Shown here: positions 2-35,524 of the stretch, piece after piece
Layout: each line of letters opens with the position of its first letter
How positions within the stretch are numbered: the first letter of the stretch is position 1
IMG/VR virus record: IMGVR_UViG_3300031992_000032
Coordinates: 1-64,000 of that record
DNA: 64,000 nt
Origin: a virus
Taxonomy: Duplodnaviria > Caudoviricetes
Direction: 5' to 3' (one strand)
Position numbers and translations under genes: made by a program
Notes under the pieces: model-generated
Databases searched by the model: none
What the model saw: the letters and a program-made list of their open reading frames with translations, nothing else
Told to the model about the DNA's origin: nothing

Positions 2-3000
2 AATATCAATGCTTATTTAGATTTTTCTGATTGTTCTGCTGCTTCTGCTGAAAGTGGATTTATTGGAGCTTATCAAAATAATGTAGGAAGTTTATTATTT
101 GGAATTTATAAGTCTTCTTCTAACTATTATTTTAGATTTTCTTATGGAGGTCCTTGAAATGGAGATATGATATCAATAGATTCTAATCGACATAATATTT
201 GATTAAATCAAGATGGAATAAATAAATTAGATAATACTGTTTTAGCTACAGAATCAGATGTCTCTACTTCATTAAATTCTAATAAAAATGGTTATATTTT
301 TTGAACTAATGGAGGGACATCCTATAAAGGAAGCTTTAAATTATATTCTTGTAAAATTTGAGAAGAAAATATTTTAGTTAGAGATTTTCTTCCTATTTTA
401 GATGAAAATAATATTCCTTGTCTTTATGATAGCATTGAAGGAAAATTTTATTATAATGCAGGAACAGGAACATTTAAATATGGATATGAAATAAATAATG
501 ATAAAAAAGTTTTAACTGGAAAAAGTTACACTCCTATTGAATATGCTCAATCAACAGGAGCTCAATATATTGACACAGGATTTAAACATAATCAAAACAC
601 TAGAATGATTGCAGAAATAGAGCTTTTAGGTGGTAATGCATGGATTAATATTTTTGGTTCTTGAGGCAACACAAATAATGGTGATAGACGTATGATGGGC
701 ATACAATGTAACACAGATGGTATGGGGTGCGTTTCAGCATATTATGGCAATGGTTTATATAATAAATGGACTGGTGTAACAGGAAAAACGACATTTGATT
801 TTAATAAAAATGTCTATACAATTAAAGGAACTTCACATACATTTACAGCGGCATCATTCCAATCATTATACAATGACTATATATTTACAGCGTCTGGTTA
901 TAGTGGCGGACCTGAAACTGGTTGTGCCCAAAAATTATATTCATTTAAAATATATGATAATGGTAGACTTATTAGAGATTATATACCTGTTAAAGATGAA
1001 AATGATATAGTATGTTTATTTGATAAAATTAGTAATAATTTTTATTATAATCAAGGGACAGGAGATTTAACGGCAGGCCCTGTAACAGGTCAAACTGTTT
1101 TGGTAGGGTATGAGCCTTTAAATTATATTGAAAGTAATGGAACTCAATATATCAATACTAATTTTTATGCAAATAATAATACTCACATACAATTAAAAGC
1201 AGTCCCAACAAAATTTGAAGAAGAGTGACAATGTATCTTTTCAAGTAAAACGGCATACCAACAAAATGAATATGTATTACAGGTACATCGAACAAATAAT
1301 AATTGATATTCTTCGTATGGAACAAACGATAGTAGAGATGTAAATATAGTATTAGGAAAAGAATACATTTGTGATAAAAATAAAAACATTACAAATATTA
1401 ATGGAACAACAATGACTTTAGATTCAGCTACTTTTACCGCAACTCACCCAGGATATATATTTGCAGATAATGAAAATGGGGCTTGTCATTTCTGAAGAGG
1501 AAAACTTTATTATTTAAAAATATATGATGATACAACATTAGTAAGAGATTTTATTCCAGTTTTAACACAAGAAGGAATTGTTAGCTTATATGACCAATTA
1601 AATAATAAATTTTATGTTAGTGAAACAAATAATTTAATAGCAGGAACTTCAGAATTTAATACTTCTGTAGCAAGAAAAGTTAGAAGAGGATATGTAGGGG
1701 TTAAGAATCAATATCAAGAGTTAGAATATTTAGAAAGTACTGGAACTCAATATATTAATACAGGAATTATTCCTACTCAAAATACAAGAACTAAAATAGC
1801 ATTTCTATTAACTAGTGGCACACAAGGTGAATATGCAGGAATGATGGGATATCAAAATGCAGATGGTAGTGGATCCAGTAACTATCGTCTTGGTAATGTT
1901 CCTGGACGCAATTTTCAATTTAATGGAGGCTCTAGTTATATAGTAGCAGAAAATACAGAAAGATTTAAATATTATGTTGCTGATTGTTCTATGAACAATT
2001 TTATAGTTAATGGAATTTCTCATTCAAGTTCTGGGCAAACCTGAGGAACTGCATCAGGCCCTATCTATTTATTTGGAAGATATAGTAGTGAATCTTCAGG
2101 AGTTTTATCTTCAACTTTATGTTCAGCAAGATTATATTATTGTAAAATATATGAAAATAATGTTTTAGTTAGAGATTTTATTCCTATTTTAGATGATAAT
2201 AATATTCCTTGCTTATATGATAAAATTACTTATAAACGTTTCTATAATATTGGAACAGGAACTTTTAATTATGGATACAAACTTGATAAGCCAAAAGGTA
2301 CTATTTTAGAATATATTGAAAGTACGGGTACTCAATATATAGATACTAATTATAAAGCAAATGATAATACATCAATAGAAATGATAATTAAATTTAGTAC
2401 TCTTTCGAGTGGGCCAGATGGATTTTGATGTAGTCGTGAAACTTCAGATATAAATAGTTACACACTATATAAAACAACAAATCGTTATTTAGGTCGTTAT
2501 GGAGCTAATGAAGAAAGTATATCTTTTACTCCACAAACGGATATATTATATACTCTTAAGCAAGAAAAAAATAAATTTTATATTAATGGGGTTCTTATGG
2601 CAATCTATCCTGATGCTACTTTTAATAGCCCTAATAATTTAATATTATTTGCTTTAAATAATGCTTCGTCTTCAAATCCAGACGTGCAAAGTTTTGGTGA
2701 ATTTAAATTATATCAATGTAAAATTTGAGATGGAGATACTCTTGTAAGAAATTTAGAACCTGCTTTGGATTATGATGGAATACCTTGTTTATATGATTGG
2801 GTTTCTCAAAGTTATTTTTATAACAAAGGAACAGGACAATTTTTATATAGTTATAATTCATCTACGACATCTTATAAAAGCACTGGGAAAAAATATACTC
2901 AATTAGAGTATATTCAATCAACTGGAACCCAATGAATTGATACTGGTTTTAATGTAACTCCAAATACAAGATTAACAATGTCATTACAGCATACATCATT

Positions 3001-4657
3001 TACAGTACAGGATAGATTTTTTGGTTCTTATGATTCTAGCGGATTATTTTTCTGTTCTTACATAAATGGTACAAGTGAATATGCTTTCGCTTATCAAAAT
3101 AATGAGGGTAATTGAATTGATACTAATAAAGATGCAAAAAATAATTCTACTTTAAATATTGATTTTGATGGAAAAAGTAAAAAATATAAATTATCTGGAG
3201 CAGTGTCATGTAGCGAAGATTTAACGCGTTATACTGCAACATTAGGTTGTAAGCAAACTTTAGCTTTATTTGGAGGAAAAGTTAATTCCGGTGCTATTGC
3301 AGGCCTTGCTAAAATGAAATTGTATTATTGTAATATATATAATGATGGTGTTTTAGTAAGGAATTTTATTCCTGTTAAGGATGAAAACGGAGTTGCCTGT
3401 CTATTTGATAGAATTAGTCAAAATTTCTTCTATAATGCAGGAACAGGAACGTTTACTGCTGGGCCTGAGACTGGAATTACTATTCAAACAGAATATCAAC
3501 CAATTAATTATATAGAAAGTACTGTTTCTGGACATCAATATATTAATACAGCAATACAAGGTGCTACAAAAATTGAAATGAAAATGAAATTTAAAAAATT
3601 AAATCCTGATGGCTCTGATGGTAATAATGCTCTAATCTGAGCAGAAAATTCAGCAGCTCCTTGAAATGCTAATGGAATTAGATATGCACTGTATGGCAGT
3701 ACGACAGAAGACCAAAGATGACAAATTGCTGGAGGAACAACTTTTTATTATAATTTTCCAAATATGGATACTGAATACATCTTAGAAGGAGATACTTCAG
3801 TTGCAGATGATACTATAAATTATTCTTTAAAAATAAATAATGAATTGGTTATTTCTGGAAGTAATACTGCAGCTTTAACATCTAATCCATTATATTTATT
3901 TGCAAGTAATCAGAATGTTTTTCCAAAACAGTATTCAATTATACAGTTATATTACTGTAAATTTTGAGATGAAAATAATAATTTAATAAAAAATCTTATT
4001 CCAGTTTTAAATTATAATGGACAACCTTGTTTATATGATACTATTGAAAATAAATTTTATGAAAATTTAGGTCAAGACAAATTTGTTATAGAAAATACTT
4101 CTAGTACAAAAGTAATAACTCCTGGAATAGCAAGAGAATTTTATCATGTTCCAAGATATACGACATTTACGAGTTCAATAGCACCAACAAGCTGAAGTGG
4201 GTCAACTACAACGGCAAACGCGGAATTTTCATCATCAAACTCATATGGTACTTGGACGTGTAAGATGGATAAACAAGCATACAATTCAACATATGTATGC
4301 TGAAAAGCCTTTGATAATGACACATCAACATATACTAGACCATCTTCAACAATTACCAACTGGGTACGAATAATATTACCTACAAATATTTCAATATGTC
4401 CTTCTAAAATTAGTATAAGAGTTGCGTATTTTAGAAATGGGTCTTATATTGAAGGATATAATGCAGAAAAAGGTGTGTGGCAAAAATTATATACACATTC
4501 TGCAAATATTAGTGGAACGGCAACAGATATTACAGCTAATATATCAACCGATCAATATTTTACACAGTTTGCCGTTAATGCGCAATACTATTCAAATTCA
4601 GTTAGATTATATAATTTTAAAATAACAAATGGAATAGTAGCAGATGATAGATTATAA
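2..4657 (+). CDS. Large repeat protein (5'-partial), about seven ~190-aa units, likely LamG/ConA-like tail fibre or adhesin; TGA=Trp
   Basis: ORF fragments at 692, 1841, 3203, 3764 and 4475 share one frame and end at TGA except the last; repeated motifs EYIESTGTQ(Y/W)IDT and KLYxCKI(Y/W)xNxxLVRDFIP...CLYD...FYYNxGTG. Confidence 0.75.
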
Positions 4658-4682
4658 TTTTTAAAGGAGGATATTATATATA

Positions 4683-5024
4683 ATGGTATACGCAGAATTA
4701 TATAATAAAAGAAAAACATATTTTTTCCAAGATAGTCATTATGCAACTTATGAAGCTTTAAAAGCTTTATTTCCTGCAATAGATGATTTGGCGCAAATAG
4801 TATTTACAGATTATACTGGACAAATAATTATATCTATTGAGCCTTTAAATTTAAAAAGGACTGAGCTTGAAATAAGTCCAACTTTAACAAATGAAGATGC
4901 AGTCCTTGCAATCGTAGAAAAACTAAATAACCCTGATGAAGAAACTTTAGATCAAACTCGTATTGCAGATGCTTTGGAAGATTTAGTTGTTCTTAATATG
5001 CCAGATGAGGAGGTAATTGAATAA
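4683..5024 (+). CDS. Hypothetical tail-associated protein
   Basis: Intact 113-aa ORF with AAGGAGG SD, between fibre gene and XkdX-like gene. Confidence 0.7.
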   Translation: MVYAELYNKRKTYFFQDSHYATYEALKALFPAIDDLAQIVFTDYTGQIIISIEPLNLKRTELEISPTLTNEDAVLAIVEKLNNPDEETLDQTRIADALEDLVVLNMPDEEVIE

Positions 5025-5149
5025 TGTTTGAAAAATTAAAGAAAAGATATGATGAAGGCAGAATTTCAATTGCCATGTTAAGAGTATATGTTCGCAAAGG
5101 ACAAATTACTCCAGCTCAATTTAAAGAAATAACTGGCGAAGAATATTAA
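5024..5149 (+). CDS. XkdX-family small phage protein
   Basis: 41 aa MFEKLKKRYDEG...VYVRKGQITPAQFKEITGEEY, typical XkdX C-terminus; missed by the ORF track. Confidence 0.75.
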   Translation: MFEKLKKRYDEGRISIAMLRVYVRKGQITPAQFKEITGEEY

Positions 5150-5276
5150 AATAAAAATTTTTTGATTTTTAAAAAAATTTTTGATATAATAAATATATAA
5201 AATAAATGAAAAATGTTTATTTTATAAGTACAAAGTTTCCACCTAAACTTATTAGATTGAAGTCAATTAGAATTGC

Positions 5277-5315
5277 AAACGGGCAAACTTTGTTAAAAAG
5301 TTTGCCCGTTTTTTT
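5277..5315 (+). terminator. Rho-independent terminator
   Basis: aaacgggcaaacttt-gtt-aaaaagtttgcccgttt hairpin followed by T-run. Confidence 0.7.
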
Positions 5316-5442
5316 ATATTCTAAGAACAGAAAAGGAGTGAGTTAAATGGATACAAGAAATGATAGTTTAGCTCCTGTTCAAGGCGATGCAGAAAATCAA
5401 AGAAAAGAAGAAGATTTTGCATAGCAGAAAGGAGATATTCTA

Positions 5443-6534
5443 ATGAATGTTAAAAGAGGAATTGATATCAGTGCTCATAATGGAGATATCGATCTTGCCG
5501 CTTTAAAATCACAAATTGATTTTGTAATTATTAGAGTAGGATTTGGTACTTCAGGAACAATTGATAAAAAATTCAAACGAAACGCGGATCTGTGTAAGAC
5601 GTTAGGTATTCCTTTTGGATTCTATTGGTATTCTTATGCTTTAGGAGTTGTAGGTGCAGAAAAAGAAGCATATGCATGTTTAAAAGCAATTGCACCTTAT
5701 AAAGATAGTTATACTATGGGTGTATGATTTGATATGGAAGATGCAGATGGATACAAGAGAAGAAATGGAATGCCATCTAATCAAGTTTTAAGAAACATTT
5801 GTGCAAGATTTTGTAGTGTAGTAAAAAATGCTGGTTATTATACAGGTATTTATGCAAGTCAAAGTTGGTTTAATAATCAACTAAAAGGAAATGAAATCAC
5901 TGAGTATGATAAGTGGGTTGCACAATGACCTACATTCGGAGGCAATCAAAAAGGTTTGAATGTAAAGCCCGAAGATAAAACTGGCATTAATTTATGGCAA
6001 TTTACTTCATTTGGACAATTTAAAGGTTATTCTGGTAGATTAGATACTAATTATGCTTATAGAAATAATTTTACTTATAATTATGTTGTTCCTCAAAAGA
6101 AAACTAATGCGGAAATTGCACAAGAAGTATTAGCTGGAAAATGGGGAAATGGTGAAATTAGAAAAACAAAATTAACCGAAGCTGGATATGATTATGCGGC
6201 TATTCAAAGTGAAGTAAATAAATTATTAAATCAACCTATTCAACCTAAAAAATCTATTGAGGAAATTGCTCAAGAGGTTTTAGATGGTAAATGGGGAAAT
6301 GGTTCAGAAAGGAAAAGTAAATTAGAACTTGCAGGTTATGATTATAATGCAGTTCAAAAGAAAGTAACTGAACTATTAAACAAAAAGAAAAAGAAATCTG
6401 TTACTGAAATTGCTAAAGAAGTTATTGCAGGCAAATGAGGTAATGGAGCAGAAAGAAAGAAAAAATTAGAGGCAGCTGGATATAACTATATAGAAGTACA
6501 AAAGAAAGTTGCAGAGCTAGTAAAAAGTAAATAG
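5443..6534 (+). CDS. Endolysin, GH25 muramidase plus three CW_7 (Cpl-7-type) cell-wall-binding repeats; 3 in-frame TGA
   Basis: GIDISAHNG, W(TGA)FDMED, LWQFTS...RLDTN motifs; three EIAxEVxxGKWGNG repeats, the third using TGA for W. Confidence 0.9.
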
Positions 6535-30342: not shown

Positions 30343-30471
30343 TTGATTTTTTTAAAAATAAATGTTATAATATTTATAGAAAATAAAAAAAATTATTTCT
30401 TATTTTCTCCAGCGTCAACTTGATGTAAAAAGAGATTAATTGAAGTATCTAAACGGTTGTATCTTCAATTC

Positions 30472-30519
30472 GGTGCTACCTGAGGCTCGGTAGTTAAATG
30501 TCAAGAGCGATAGACAGCC
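30472..30519 (+). ncRNA. Unknown two-hairpin kissing-loop RNA motif, copy 1 (others at 31795-31839, 32851-32896)
   Basis: GGTG-CTACY..RGTAG-nnAAA-TGTN..NACA-GCC with compensatory changes among three copies. Confidence 0.65.
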
Positions 30520-30833: not shown

Positions 30834-30889
30834 GAGAAGCAATTGGAATACCTCCTCGTGGTGCTTCTCGGGTAATGCTAAAAGTCCAA
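30834..30889 (+). ncRNA. Minimal HDV-like (theta-type) self-cleaving ribozyme, copy 1
   Basis: P1 gagaagc/gcttctc, P3 acc-tcctcgt-ggt, P1.1 GG, J4/2 CTAA, P2 ttgga/tccaa. Confidence 0.75.
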
Positions 30890-30979: not shown

Positions 30980-31065
30980 GGGCGGGTTGCCGAGTTGGTC
31001 AAAGGCGGCGGACTGTAACTCCGTTCTCATCGAGTTCGAAGGTTCAAATCCTTCCCCTCCCACCA
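30980..31065 (+). tRNA. tRNA-Tyr(GTA)
   Basis: Cloverleaf, ctGTAac loop, long variable arm, CCA. Confidence 0.9.
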
Positions 31066-31068
31066 TAT

Positions 31069-31155
31069 GGACGAGTGGTGGAATAGGCAGACACACAGGA
31101 CTTAAAATCCTGTGGGAGCAATCTCGTGTGGGTTCAAGTCCCACCTCGTCCACCA
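31069..31155 (+). tRNA. tRNA-Leu(TAA)
   Basis: Cloverleaf, ctTAAaa loop, CCA. Confidence 0.92.
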
Positions 31156-31158
31156 TAT

Positions 31159-31243
31159 GGGCGATTGATGGAATTTGGCAGACATGCTAGACTTAGAATC
31201 TAGTGTCATAGACGTACAGGTTCAAGTCCTGTATCGCCCACCA
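31159..31243 (+). tRNA. tRNA-Leu(TAG)
   Basis: Cloverleaf, ctTAGaa loop, CCA. Confidence 0.92.
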
Positions 31244-31252
31244 TATGAAATT

Positions 31253-31328
31253 GAGGATGTAACTCAGTTGGTAGAGTACAAAACTTTTAATTTTGGAGTC
31301 GAGAGTTCAAGTCTCTCCATCCTCACCA
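31253..31328 (+). tRNA. tRNA-Lys(TTT)
   Basis: Cloverleaf, ctTTTaa loop, CCA. Confidence 0.92.
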
Positions 31329-31341
31329 ATAGAATTTTTAT

Positions 31342-31417
31342 GGGGATTTAGCTCAGCTGGGAGAGCATCTGCCTTACAAGCAGGGGGTCATAGGTTCGAG
31401 CCCTATAGTCCCTACCA
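31342..31417 (+). tRNA. tRNA-Val(TAC)
   Basis: Cloverleaf, ctTACaa loop, CCA. Confidence 0.93.
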
Positions 31418-31420
31418 TAT

Positions 31421-31495
31421 CGCCCGTTGGTCAAGAGGTTAAGACACGACCCTTTCACGGTCGGGACGTGGGTTCAATTCCCGCACGGGTGACCA
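31421..31495 (+). tRNA. tRNA-Glu(TTC)
   Basis: Cloverleaf, ctTTCac loop, CCA. Confidence 0.92.
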
Positions 31496-31501
31496 AAGAA
31501 T

Positions 31502-31734
31502 ATCAATATCATAGATAAATCATAAGTTGAAAAACAGAACTCTGGCTACGTAGAACTTATGGGGCGGAAACGTCAGGAAGTTCAGGGCACTCATTACCTG
31601 AGATGGTAGTTAAAAGATGTTGGCGGCAACAGAGACGAGAATTGTGAAACGGGCGACAGCCTATCTGGGTGAAACTCAAATAATGGTAGAGGAACTTCAA
31701 TAGGGAAATGAACTGAGTTGAAGATGATATTGAT
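31502..31734 (+). ncRNA. rnpB: Circularly permuted minimal B-type RNase P RNA
   Basis: CR-IV (AGATAAAT) and CR-V (ACAGAACTCTGGCT) precede CR-I (AGGAAGTTCAGGGC); P4 with bulged U, P2, P3-GAAA, L5.1 TGAGAT, CR-II/III, L15 GGT and P15.1 all present; ends closed by an 11-bp helix. Confidence 0.85.
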
Positions 31735-31794
31735 TTTTTATAAAAAAAATGTTATAATATATATAGAAAATAAAAAAAGAAATTTAAAAATTTT

Positions 31795-31839
31795 GGTGCT
31801 ACTTACTCTCAGTAGATAAATGTTGGAGAACAAACAGCC
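31795..31839 (+). ncRNA. Kissing-loop motif, copy 2
   Basis: ctact/agtag and tgtt/aaca stems; tctc/gaga loop pairing. Confidence 0.6.
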
Positions 31840-32102
31840 TGTAGTCGAAGGATCGCAAACACCTTCCATTCTTTGGAAAACAGCGTGATGCTGAAAGAAC
31901 AAATGTTCAGCACAAAAATATGTGTGGTTCGAGTGACCTTAAGCTCTCCTTAGTTTAATAAGTTGGAAACAAAGCAGGTAATACGAAAGTATTAGCACGG
32001 AAGCCTGTGCGGCTAGGAGGAAATGCCTAGCATTTATATGCCGATTGTGGGTAGTAGGGTCGCTCCCTATGGCAGGTTCGATTCCTGCAGGCAGCTTTAT
32101 AT

Positions 32103-32238: not shown

Positions 32239-32329
32239 AGAAATGCTTTCAAAGGTTCGAATCCTTTCCCCTAAAAAGGTGGCAGAGCGGTTAATTGCAC
32301 TAGGACACATGTTCTAGTAAAGCATTTCT
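32239..32329 (+). ncRNA. Circularly permuted tRNA-like RNA (T arm before D arm)
   Basis: agaaatgcttt/aaagcatttct closing helix; aaagg-TTCGAAT-ccttt; tggcagagcggttaattgca D arm; actaggac/gttctagt hairpin. Confidence 0.7.
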
Positions 32330-32332
32330 TTT

Positions 32333-32391
32333 GGAGAACTTGATAGTAACCTCCTCGTGGTGTTCTCTGGATTAAAACTAATAACTATCAA
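32333..32391 (+). ncRNA. Minimal HDV-like (theta-type) ribozyme, copy 2
   Basis: P1 ggagaac/gttctct (G-U at cleavage site), P2 ttgatagt/actatcaa, ACCTCCTCGTGGT core, CTAA. Confidence 0.8.
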
Positions 32392-32476: not shown

Positions 32477-32552
32477 TGAGGCATAGCCCAATGGATAGAG
32501 CAACGCCCTTCTAAGGCGTGTGTTACAGGTTCAAGTCCTGTTGCCTCAACCA
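32477..32552 (+). tRNA. tRNA-Arg(TCT)
   Basis: acgcc-ctTCTaa-ggcgt, CCA. Confidence 0.9.
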
Positions 32553-32850: not shown

Positions 32851-32896
32851 GGTGCTACCTGAGGCTCGGTAGTCAAATGTGGGAGAACACACAGCC
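32851..32896 (+). ncRNA. Kissing-loop motif, copy 3
   Basis: ctacc/ggtag and tgtg/caca stems. Confidence 0.6.
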
Positions 32897-33098: not shown

Positions 33099-33152
33099 GG
33101 AGGACAGCTGAAACACCTCCTCGTGGTGTCCTCTGGGTAACGCTAAGTTTCA
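33099..33152 (+). ncRNA. Minimal HDV-like (theta-type) ribozyme, copy 3
   Basis: P1 ggaggac/gtcctct, P2 tgaaac/gtttca, ACCTCCTCGTGGT core, GCTAA. Confidence 0.8.
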
Positions 33153-33705: not shown

Positions 33706-34160
33706 GATAAAAAAATATAATTGATTTTTTTAAAAATAAATGTTATAATAATTATAGAAAATAAAAAAGAAAAAGTAATAAATATGGCTTAGAGCTTCAC
33801 GTATATGATTTCAACGTTGTGCCATATAAAATAATACAACGTGGAATATTATTCTTGTTGATGGGGGCAACAAGTAAAAGAATACTTCCCCCAAAAAAGA
33901 TTTAATTGTTTTTTATAAAAAATTATGTTATAATTATTATAGAAAATAAAAAAAAGAAATTAAATAATTTCTTTTACCATCCATCTAATTGGAAAAAAGA
34001 TTTAAATAAGAAATCTTCAATATGGTTCTGTTCTTATTAAACATATATCTCGTTAGGGGCTGCGAGTATAAATAAAGAACAGCTGAGCTACCCAGCATAA
34101 TGGTAGCAACTAATTATAAGGGATGCCACCCAAGAAATGGCAGAAAGAGAGGGATTTATT

Positions 34161-34547: not shown

Positions 34548-34699
34548 TATTAACTAACATATAGAGTATAGAATTAATCAAAGGGAACATAAGGTAATTT
34601 ATGCTCCCTTTGATGCTATTTATTTAAAAATGGTCAGTTTTAAATTTGCGAAGAGTGGGTTTCGTAAATCCGAAAAAATACGGAAAAGGAGTGTTTCAT

Positions 34700-35524
34700 A
34701 TGGGAAGTGGAGAAGTAAATATCATAAGAGAATATATTAAGGAAGTTTACAATCACGAGTTATTAACTGCGGAAAAAGAGAAGGAATTAGCTAAGGAGAA
34801 AAATTATGATGAACTTGTTTCCGCAAATTTAAGATTGGTTATATCAATCGCAAAGAAATATATGAATCGTGGAGTAGCTTTTATGGATTTAATCCAAGAG
34901 GGAAATATCGGTTTGATGGTTGCCGCAGAGAAGTTTGATCCAGATAAAGGATTTAGATTTTCTACATATGCAACATATTGGATACAACAATATATTGGTA
35001 GAGCAGTAGCTAATCAAGCAAGAACAGTTAGAATTCCAATAAATATATATTCAAATATAAGTAAGATGAATGCCGCAATAGAAAAGATATCTAAACTAAC
35101 TGGAGGTACTCCAACAGATGAAGAGCTTTCCGCAGAAATGGGGATAACATTAGAAGAATTAAAGAAGTTAAAATACTATTATCAGACAACAATCTCTTTA
35201 GATGAGTCTATTGATAATGGAGAGGATAAAGATACAACAGTAGGCGATCTTGTTGCAGATAATAATGCGGAAGATCCATATAGAAAAGCTGAAAAGAGTG
35301 CTTTGCAAGATGCGGTTGCCGCATTGCTTGGTAGTTTAAGTGATAAAGAGGCAGATGTTATAAGAAAAAGATTTGGTATTGGAGAAGTTAATCCAATGAC
35401 TCTTGAAGAAATAAGTAAACTATATGGATTAACAAAAGAAAGAATTAGACAAATTGAGAACCAAGCATTAAAGAAATTAAGAAATCCAATTAGAAGTGGT
35501 TCATTAAAAGAATTCCTTGCTTAA
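34700..35524 (+). CDS. RpoD/SigA-like RNA polymerase sigma factor
   Basis: [50 protein letters not shown]...[15 protein letters not shown]. Confidence 0.93.

Follow-up and report, generated by a model that had tools for sequence, protein, structure and literature searches.

Few ribozymes are universal, and ribonuclease P (RNase P) RNA is among them; to our knowledge, every natural RNase P RNA has its two ends paired with each other in helix P1. Natural permuted genes are found in other RNA families, including two-piece transfer-messenger RNA (tmRNA), the permuted tRNA genes of red algae and permuted signal recognition particle RNA, several of which mature by cutting or ligation. Engineered circularly permuted variants of the Bacillus subtilis P RNA were reportedly used in folding studies by Pan, Fang and Sosnick in 1999. 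PMC8632103 likewise describes circularly permuted B. subtilis RNase P RNAs that were engineered and used in folding experiments. Here, we analysed the first 64 kb (hereafter the window) of IMGVR_UViG_3300031992_000032, a linear, 127-kb virus record derived from a metagenome with an estimated completeness of 86%, and found at positions 31502-31734 on the + strand a 233-nucleotide (nt) element that we read as a genuine, selected, circularly permuted, P1-less and reduced type-B-like RNase P RNA, a reading to which we assign a probability of about 0.88. The element shares with the engineered permuted P RNAs its topology, in which the old ends are joined, new ends lie elsewhere and the fold is retained. 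Whereas those RNAs are laboratory constructs with a capped P1, the phage form is natural, lacks P1 and is represented by four phage sequences. Unlike several of the permuted RNA genes of other families, it appears to need only end trimming.

From 5′ to 3′, the window RNA consists of a P18-like arm, J18/2, the P2 3′ strand, J2/4, the P4 3′ strand, a linker, the P2 5′ strand, P3, conserved region (CR) I with the P4 5′ strand, the P5 5′ strand, P5.1, a stalk, the P5 3′ strand, P15, P15.1 and a second P18-like arm. All motifs and helices listed in the preliminary description, which was made from the sequence before any search, were recovered by direct reading at the positions it gave between 31502 and 31734. 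The 5′ arm of the closing helix (31502-31512), which stands in for the 3′ strand of P18 and was also found de novo by RNAalifold, is followed by J18/2 (CR-IV; AGAUAAAU, 31513-31520), which fits the consensus AGAuAgAU of the Rfam type-B RNase P model RF00011, matches the Solobacterium sequence in every base and is the same in three of the four members. The P2 3′ strand (CAUAAGUU, 31521-31528) precedes its own 5′ partner, with which it forms 8 base pairs (bp). J2/4, the 5′ part of CR-V (GAAAAACAGAA, 31529-31539), carries no P19 and is invariant in all four members, and its ACAGAAC equals both the consensus and the bacterial sequence. The P4 3′ strand (CUCUGGCU, 31540-31547) forms a pseudoknot with 31579-31587, and the run from J2/4 into this strand reads ACAGAACUCUGGCU at 31534-31547. 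In the place of P1 stands the linker ACGUAG (31548-31553), which is 6-9 nt long and forms no helix in any of the four members.

Behind the linker, the P2 5′ strand (AACUUAUG, 31554-31561) is followed by the P3 hairpin GGCG-GAAA-CGUC (31563-31574), which has 4 bp and a GAAA (GNRA) loop in the window and 5 bp in the relatives L072 and L074; all four pairs vary while pairing is kept. CR-I and the P4 5′ strand (AGGAAGUUCAGGG, 31575-31587) align without gaps to CR-I of RF00011, with a bulged U at 31581 or 31582; the window reads AGGAAGUUCAGGGC at 31575-31588, and the CR-I string AGGAAGUUC is invariant in the four members. The P5 5′ strand (31588-31592) pairs with the P5 3′ strand (31667-31671), which was placed by the RF00011 alignment and by covariation. 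Between them lie the P5.1 hairpin (31593-31610), whose UGAGAU loop is a type-B hallmark, and a specificity-domain remnant (31615-31666) made up of a 4-bp P7-like helix, a 3-bp P10/11-like helix, a CR-II-like strand GGCAACAGAGAC, a 7-nt stand-in for P12 and a CR-III-like strand GUGAAACGGGCGACA; P8, P9 and P10.1 are absent from it. The strings GCAACAGAGACG and GUGAAACG were also read directly in the window RNA. The P15 hairpin (31675-31691; CUC-AAAUAAUGGUA-GAG), placed by the RF00011 alignment, carries GGU in its loop, and P15.1 (31695-31723), another type-B hallmark, has the loop GGAAAUGAAC.

The 3′ arm of the closing helix (31724-31734) stands in for the 5′ strand of P18. As had been proposed, it joins the new ends to 31502-31512 in a perfect 11-bp helix, and 5 of the 11 pairs are compensatory among three members. 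One caveat is that this arm overlaps the −35 box TTGATT at 31730 of the next promoter; the overlap is incidental, because the closing helix of L004 and L072 has an unrelated sequence with no promoter behind it. By this layout, the old ends are fused, P1 is deleted with a 6-nt linker in its stead, and the new ends lie at the would-be loop of P18, so that P18 becomes the terminal helix. Since P8, the usual docking partner of L18, is absent, opening the P18 loop would cost no contact.

Homology to RNase P RNA was supported by covariance-model searches. RF00011 matched 31559-31750 with 45.6 bits (E-value 5e-11 in a 1-kb scan and 1.4e-12 over the 127-kb record) under relaxed thresholds; this score falls below the gathering cut-off of 97 bits, which is why a default Rfam scan listed tRNAs only. 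The match spans positions 12-316 of the 365-position model: it takes in only the final three bases of the P2 5′ strand and stops within the first bases of the P2 3′ strand. The final 12 bases of the alignment (31739-31750) are a spurious tail that was pushed into the A-run of the promoter downstream. The elements missing from the match, namely J18/2, the P2 3′ strand, J2/4 and the P4 3′ strand, sit upstream at 31513-31547, and the rotated part lies outside what a linear model can score. That upstream segment reads AGAUAAAU (31513), an 8-nt perfect complement of 31554-31561 and then GAAAA-ACAGAAC-UCUGGCUAC; the 3′ end of the model in an aligned bona fide type-B RNA reads AGAuAgAU, the P2 3′ strand, a P19 hairpin and then ACAaAACAUGGCUUAc. 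Because order and strings follow the RF00011 consensus, we identify the upstream segment as J18/2, P2 3′ strand, J2/4 and P4 3′ strand without P19. A pattern derived from this consensus and running from J18/2 to J2/4-P4 was found a single time in 64 kb and never in 100 shuffles, and the CR-I 14-mer occurs once in the window, with 0.01 occurrences expected. The type-A model RF00010 gave no match at E ≤ 0.001 across the whole record.

P4 usually consists of three pairs, a bulged U and five pairs, and the role of this bulged U in RNase P RNA is well established. The window RNA has the same geometry (3 bp, bulged U, 5 bp), with CR-I and CR-V aligned gaplessly to the consensus. Relative to that consensus, two pairs are swapped in a compensatory manner, from A-U to G-C and from G-C to U-G. 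The P4 pseudoknot carries no annotation in Rfam.

The same permutation was then sought in relatives with pattern scans that demanded CR-V 10-40 nt upstream of CR-I, an order that is impossible in a canonical gene. Three more natural members were found, L004, L072 and L074, the last of which is cut at its 3′ end. All four members have the rotated order and lack P1, and in the full-length copies a helix at the position of P18 closes the ends. L004, on a 64.7-kb viral contig, is flanked by tRNA-Gly and tRNA-Cys (the same contig was recovered as L069), L072 lies on a 2-kb contig flanked by protein-coding sequence, and L074 lies behind a tRNA array on a 1.7-kb contig, where promoter-like hexamers, recognized by eye, directly precede its 5′ arm, as would suit a free-standing transcript. 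RF00011 scored 58.8 bits on L004 and 52.8 bits on L072, with both matches ending at model position 317/318; in the window RNA, L004 and L072, E-values ranged from 1e-11 to 1e-13. The window RNA shares 71-74% identity with the other members, which share 85-88% among themselves. The L004 record is syntenic with the window record over about 17 kb at 33-77% amino-acid identity, and L072 and L074 are close to L004. In the related phage record, L163 (G001:C1), 23 tRNA genes form one array (163-5489, − strand), in which its permuted RNase P RNA has tRNA-Gly and tRNA-Cys as neighbours.

The scans separated members from background as follows. Among viral contigs, one pattern returned no stretches and the others returned one true member among 7, 48, 10, 1 and 1 stretches, respectively; the permuted form spelled with the canonical CR-I/CR-V pattern had no match. 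A further pattern returned nothing but L157, an RNA of normal order described below. Three of 12 metagenome-contig stretches were true, one of them being the L004 contig again, and none of 81 genome-contig stretches was true, in a triage by nhmmer that could miss weak relatives. A 111-position covariance model of the junction (R1), run over 75 sources with 80 genome_contigs loci (L076-L155) set aside, matched only the four known members. Its next best match, at 57005-57134 of the window (22 bits, E 0.034), was taken as chance. A blastn search of the INPHARED phages gave no match to the window RNA.

Compensatory changes among these members support the permuted order, the lack of P1, the reduced specificity domain, the type-B-style P5.1, P15 and P15.1 and the closure of the ends at P18 that the preliminary description had put forward. 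In a model-guided alignment of the rotated junction from the four members (A6), the 26 pairs of P2, P3, P4 and P5.1 are 99% paired with 12 compensatory pairs; when the 3′ partner was slid by 1-3 columns, pairing fell to 29-46% with 0-1 compensatory pairs, and none of 500 shuffles reached any of the observed measures. The full-length alignment (A2) covers 55 pairs in 9 helices, with 96.8% pairing and 20 compensatory pairs, against 0-1 in the slid controls. The compensatory pairs are spread over the closing helix (5 of 11, resting on three members), P2 (4 of 8, all pairs kept in every member), P4 (3 of 8, with 100% pairing in four members), P5.1 (4 of 6), P15.1 (2 of 7), P15 (one of 3) and P5 (one). 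RNAalifold, applied to the three full-length sequences with no structure supplied, predicted 65 pairs, 23 of them compensatory, and recovered the closing helix, P2, P3, P5, P5.1, P7, P10/11, P15 and P15.1, together with P12 in L004 and L072 only.

Conservation is distributed differently between helices and junctions. Invariant columns make up 96 of 121 unpaired and 64 of 109 paired positions. J2/4, the AGGA of J3/4, the GGU of L15 and the AAAUGAA of L15.1 are unchanged in every member that covers them, and J18/2 shows a single change, in L074. Counted by member, J3/4 AGGA is invariant in 4/4, J2/4 GAAAAACAGAA in 4/4 and J18/2 AGAUAAAU in 3/4, and all three agree with the consensus. Junctions more conserved than helices are the pattern expected of a working ribozyme core, and, judged from this alignment, purifying selection is acting on both the fold and the junctions.

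Within the family, P12 shrinks stepwise from about 66 nt in L004 and L072 (about 60 more than in the window) to 3 bp and a tetraloop in L074 and to 7 unpaired or barely paired nucleotides in the window copy, which is the smallest of the set with 233 nt versus 288 and 290 nt in L004 and L072. Position 31640, which is unpaired in the vestigial P12 loop, shows an A-to-T change in contigs X21, X5 and X13 of three runs from other studies.

The assignment to type B, also made in the preliminary description, held in part. P5.1, P15.1 and a P15 hairpin loop with GGU, recognized by the RF00011 alignment together with covariation, are features of type B. P10.1 and P19 are both missing: no more than 3 nt separate the P7-like from the P10/11-like strands, where P10.1 would be placed, and instead of the 9-bp P19 hairpin of the model, GAAAA alone links the P2 3′ strand to ACAGAAC. 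Neither end pairing in P1 nor the collinear order P1-P2-P3-P4...P4′-P2′-P1′ is found in any of the four members. The strings CAACAGAGAC and GUGAAANGGGNGACA (CR-II/CR-III) are conserved in all four members and shared with the bona fide type-A RNA L157 described below, in which a 16-mer and a 17-mer of these strands recur; the helices that normally frame them (P8, P9, P12-P14) are missing, and RF00011 leaves this part unaligned. By these features, the catalytic domain has all its parts and is type-B-like, and the label "type B" fits this domain only.

Compared with bacterial type-B RNAs (RF00011, the B. subtilis rnpB type), the phage RNA shares CR-I, P3, P5, P5.1 with its UGNGAU loop, the GGU of the P15 loop, P15.1 with its GAAAUGAA loop, J18/2 AGAUAAAU and J2/4 ACAGAAC followed by the P4 3′ strand, and like them it is without P6, P16, P17, P13 and P14. 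It differs from them in placing the 3′ elements first, in the deletion of P1 and the opening of P18 at its loop, in the absence of P19, P10.1, P8 and P9, in its vestigial P12 and in being phage-encoded, and its 233 nt compare with 340-390 nt in five bacterial type-B examples.

Another RNase P RNA was observed in the viral collection. Contig L157 (378,912 nt) carries at 1182-1480 (+) a type-A RNase P RNA of 299 nt that matches positions 1-367 of RF00010 with 142.3 bits (cut-off 100); the next tRNA gene noted lies downstream at a distance of about 400 nt. The RNA appears to be phage-borne, with its elements in the canonical order. It resembles the window RNA in its viral contig near a tRNA, its reduced size and the two shared CR-II/CR-III strings, and differs in its canonical order with P1, its type-A architecture and its score above the Rfam cut-off. 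A literature search turned up neither a phage-encoded RNase P RNA nor a natural permuted one; as supplements and most subscription journals lay outside it, the search is not proof of novelty. In the accessible parts of a 2024 RNase P review (PMC11143913), "permut" occurs only for permuted tRNA probes, and in those of a paper on theta ribozymes of recoded gut phages, RNase P appears only as the host enzyme.

Several observations weigh against a permuted RNase P RNA. The RF00011 score of 45.6 bits is under half of the gathering cut-off, and the 52-nt 5′ segment by itself gave no hit in an Rfam scan. Restoring the canonical order gained only 0.8 bits for the window RNA, 3.2 for L004 and 4.6 for L072 in an nhmmer rotation scan, whose sequence-only profile, made from five type-B RNAs of bacteria, responds to little outside the P15 region. 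The missing P8, P9, P10.1, P12 and P1 could cripple substrate recognition or stability. Only four members are known, and as they all belong to one group of related ruminant-gut phages, their covariation events are not independent and represent few evolutionary events, mostly between the window RNA and the other three. The low score and the silence of RF00010, along with several other unexplained structured RNAs in the same region, could also be taken to mean that an unrelated structured phage RNA with another job mimics parts of RNase P RNA, such as P15/P15.1 and CR-I-like strings. We consider such mimicry extremely improbable, given that all five conserved regions are present with the right helices between them, that P4 has canonical geometry in a gapless alignment to the RF00011 consensus and that E-values of 1e-11 to 1e-13 were obtained in three members.

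A normal rnpB-like gene that was broken and shuffled in the contig, by assembly or by rearrangement, or that is decaying as a pseudogene, could give a similar picture; the window is drawn from a metagenome-derived virus record, repeated promoters of a kind at which assemblers break flank the region, and three contigs stop at 31735. The same order is found, however, in three other contigs with different flanks, and contigs from four other runs of four other studies span the junctions. Public runs with a ruminant-gut label, from 16 studies, contain near-identical sequence. In each of two other studies, a DNA contig joins the tRNAs, the 5′ segment and the body of the RNA (X5, 31371-31735; X13, 31449-31735), and contigs from RNA libraries of two metatranscriptome studies cover 31425-31691, with no differences, and 31520-31735. 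RNA libraries can hold DNA, so that these last contigs show presence and not transcription, which also counts against reading them as support for an expressed RNA; gaps in their cover (for example 31696-31826 in X3) carry no information. Every helix has moreover been kept by compensatory changes, which is unlike decay. An artefact or pseudogene thus appears largely refuted, with a residual probability that we regard as negligible, and the mis-assembly named beforehand as a way for the proposal to fail was not borne out by contigs that bridge the junction in other studies.

A different possibility concerns function: the RNA might be a permuted homologue that is no longer catalytic and acts as a decoy titrating the host protein RnpA or pre-tRNA; alternatively, it might stabilise the tRNA transcript or serve as a scaffold at its end. 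Such a role would suit the loss of P1, the strong reduction of the specificity domain, the size of the window copy (233 nt versus 288-290 nt), in which reduction has gone furthest among the four, and the failure to find an RnpA gene in the record. On the other side, the positions for chemistry and substrate docking, and not just those for binding the protein, are invariant wherever they are covered (the bulged U, J3/4 AGGA, J2/4 ACAGAA, L15 GGU and the CR-II/III strands), and RNase P RNAs that consist of the catalytic domain only or lack the specificity domain are active. We therefore rate a non-catalytic role as unlikely. Catalytic processing of tRNA 5′ ends is the function we favour, with clearly less assurance than the identity of the RNA itself.

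Between 30.3 and 34.1 kb, the window's open reading frames (ORFs) of at least 60 amino acids (aa) number only two, both overlapping tRNA genes, which leaves an island of about 3.8 kb that is free of protein genes and is served by near-identical strong promoters. Five promoters of the form TTGATT-17-TATAAT start at 30343, 31730, 32648, 33370 and 33721 (+), four of them with TG, and a sixth of variant form was read from the sequence near 33905 (+). The first promoter (30343-30371, +, with TG) drives a unit that comprises a large structured RNA, six tRNA genes (Tyr, Leu, Leu, Lys, Val and Glu; 30980-31495, +) and, directly downstream of these as the last gene, the RNase P-like RNA; the next RNA unit has its promoter at 31730-31758 (+). 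CCA is encoded in all four tRNA ends inspected (Leu at 31243, Lys, Val and Glu). As reported in the preliminary description, the RNA starts at the seventh base after the CCA of tRNA-Glu, which ends at 31495, so that 6 nt separate this CCA from the RNA at 31502.

Other elements of the island were noted in passing. An element of the type CCUCCUCGUGGUG...UCUGGGUAA occurs in three copies (30852-30880, 32351-32380 and 33116-33145, +), and around the second of them, at 32329-32390, lies a weak Rfam match to a hepatitis delta virus (HDV)-like ribozyme (drz-agam-1, 16.9 bits, E 1.9). A motif of about 46 nt with two hairpins (GGUGCUAC...GGUAG...AAAUG...CAGCC) is likewise present three times, at 30472-30519, 31795-31839 and 32851-32896 (+), close to where the first three promoter-driven units begin, and has no Rfam match at gathering score. 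At 32477-32552 (+), a tRNA with a CUA anticodon, an amber suppressor, was labelled Pyl by ARAGORN; reading TAG as Gln lengthens only a few ORFs of at least 250 aa in the window. A T-arm-like hairpin at 32063-32097 (+), before tRNA-Met, gave a weak match to the 3′ end of a tmRNA model (10.2 bits, E 0.1), and ARAGORN found no tmRNA in the window. Immediately after the island, a sigma-70 family protein with regions 1.2, 2, 3 and 4 is encoded at 34646-35524 (+), which was not found in the L004 record (36% complete).

From this arrangement, a route by which the permuted RNase P RNA would act can be proposed. Trimming of the flanking tRNAs would free the RNA from the tRNA transcript; in L004, the 3′ end of the RNA would be set when the downstream tRNA-Cys is cut at its own 5′ end. 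The freed RNA would fold, with P18 closing its ends, and bind RnpA of the host. No match to RnpA (PF00825) was found in the 86%-complete record, which does not prove its absence; a missing RnpA gene fits dependence on the host protein and proves nothing. The assembled ribozyme would then cleave the 5′ leaders of the tightly spaced phage pre-tRNAs, and perhaps of tRNA-like RNAs of the island, with the GGU of L15 docking onto the encoded CCA of the phage pre-tRNAs. The result would be added 5′-processing capacity during infection.

A more far-reaching and doubtful proposal is that the island encodes a self-sufficient tRNA-maturation kit, in which the permuted RNase P RNA would make the 5′ ends and the putative HDV-like ribozymes of the same island the 3′ ends, and that the permutation itself is adaptive. 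Two advantages are conceivable: with both P4 strands, P2 and P3 within the first 90 nt, the core could fold first during transcription, or a P1-less RNA could escape a shut-down or degradation of host RNase P RNA by phage or host. If this proposal were true, translation of the phage would be independent of host RNase P RNA.

Specialists would not expect to find a natural, rotated RNase P RNA without P1 in a phage. If our reading of the RNA is correct, the RNase P fold tolerates rotation in evolution as well as in bench constructs, and these phages provide an RNA, already minimised in nature, on which structure and folding could be studied. Such a form would also explain why annotation with covariance models overlooks such genes, and 5′-end processing would join the host functions that tRNA-rich phages bring with them.

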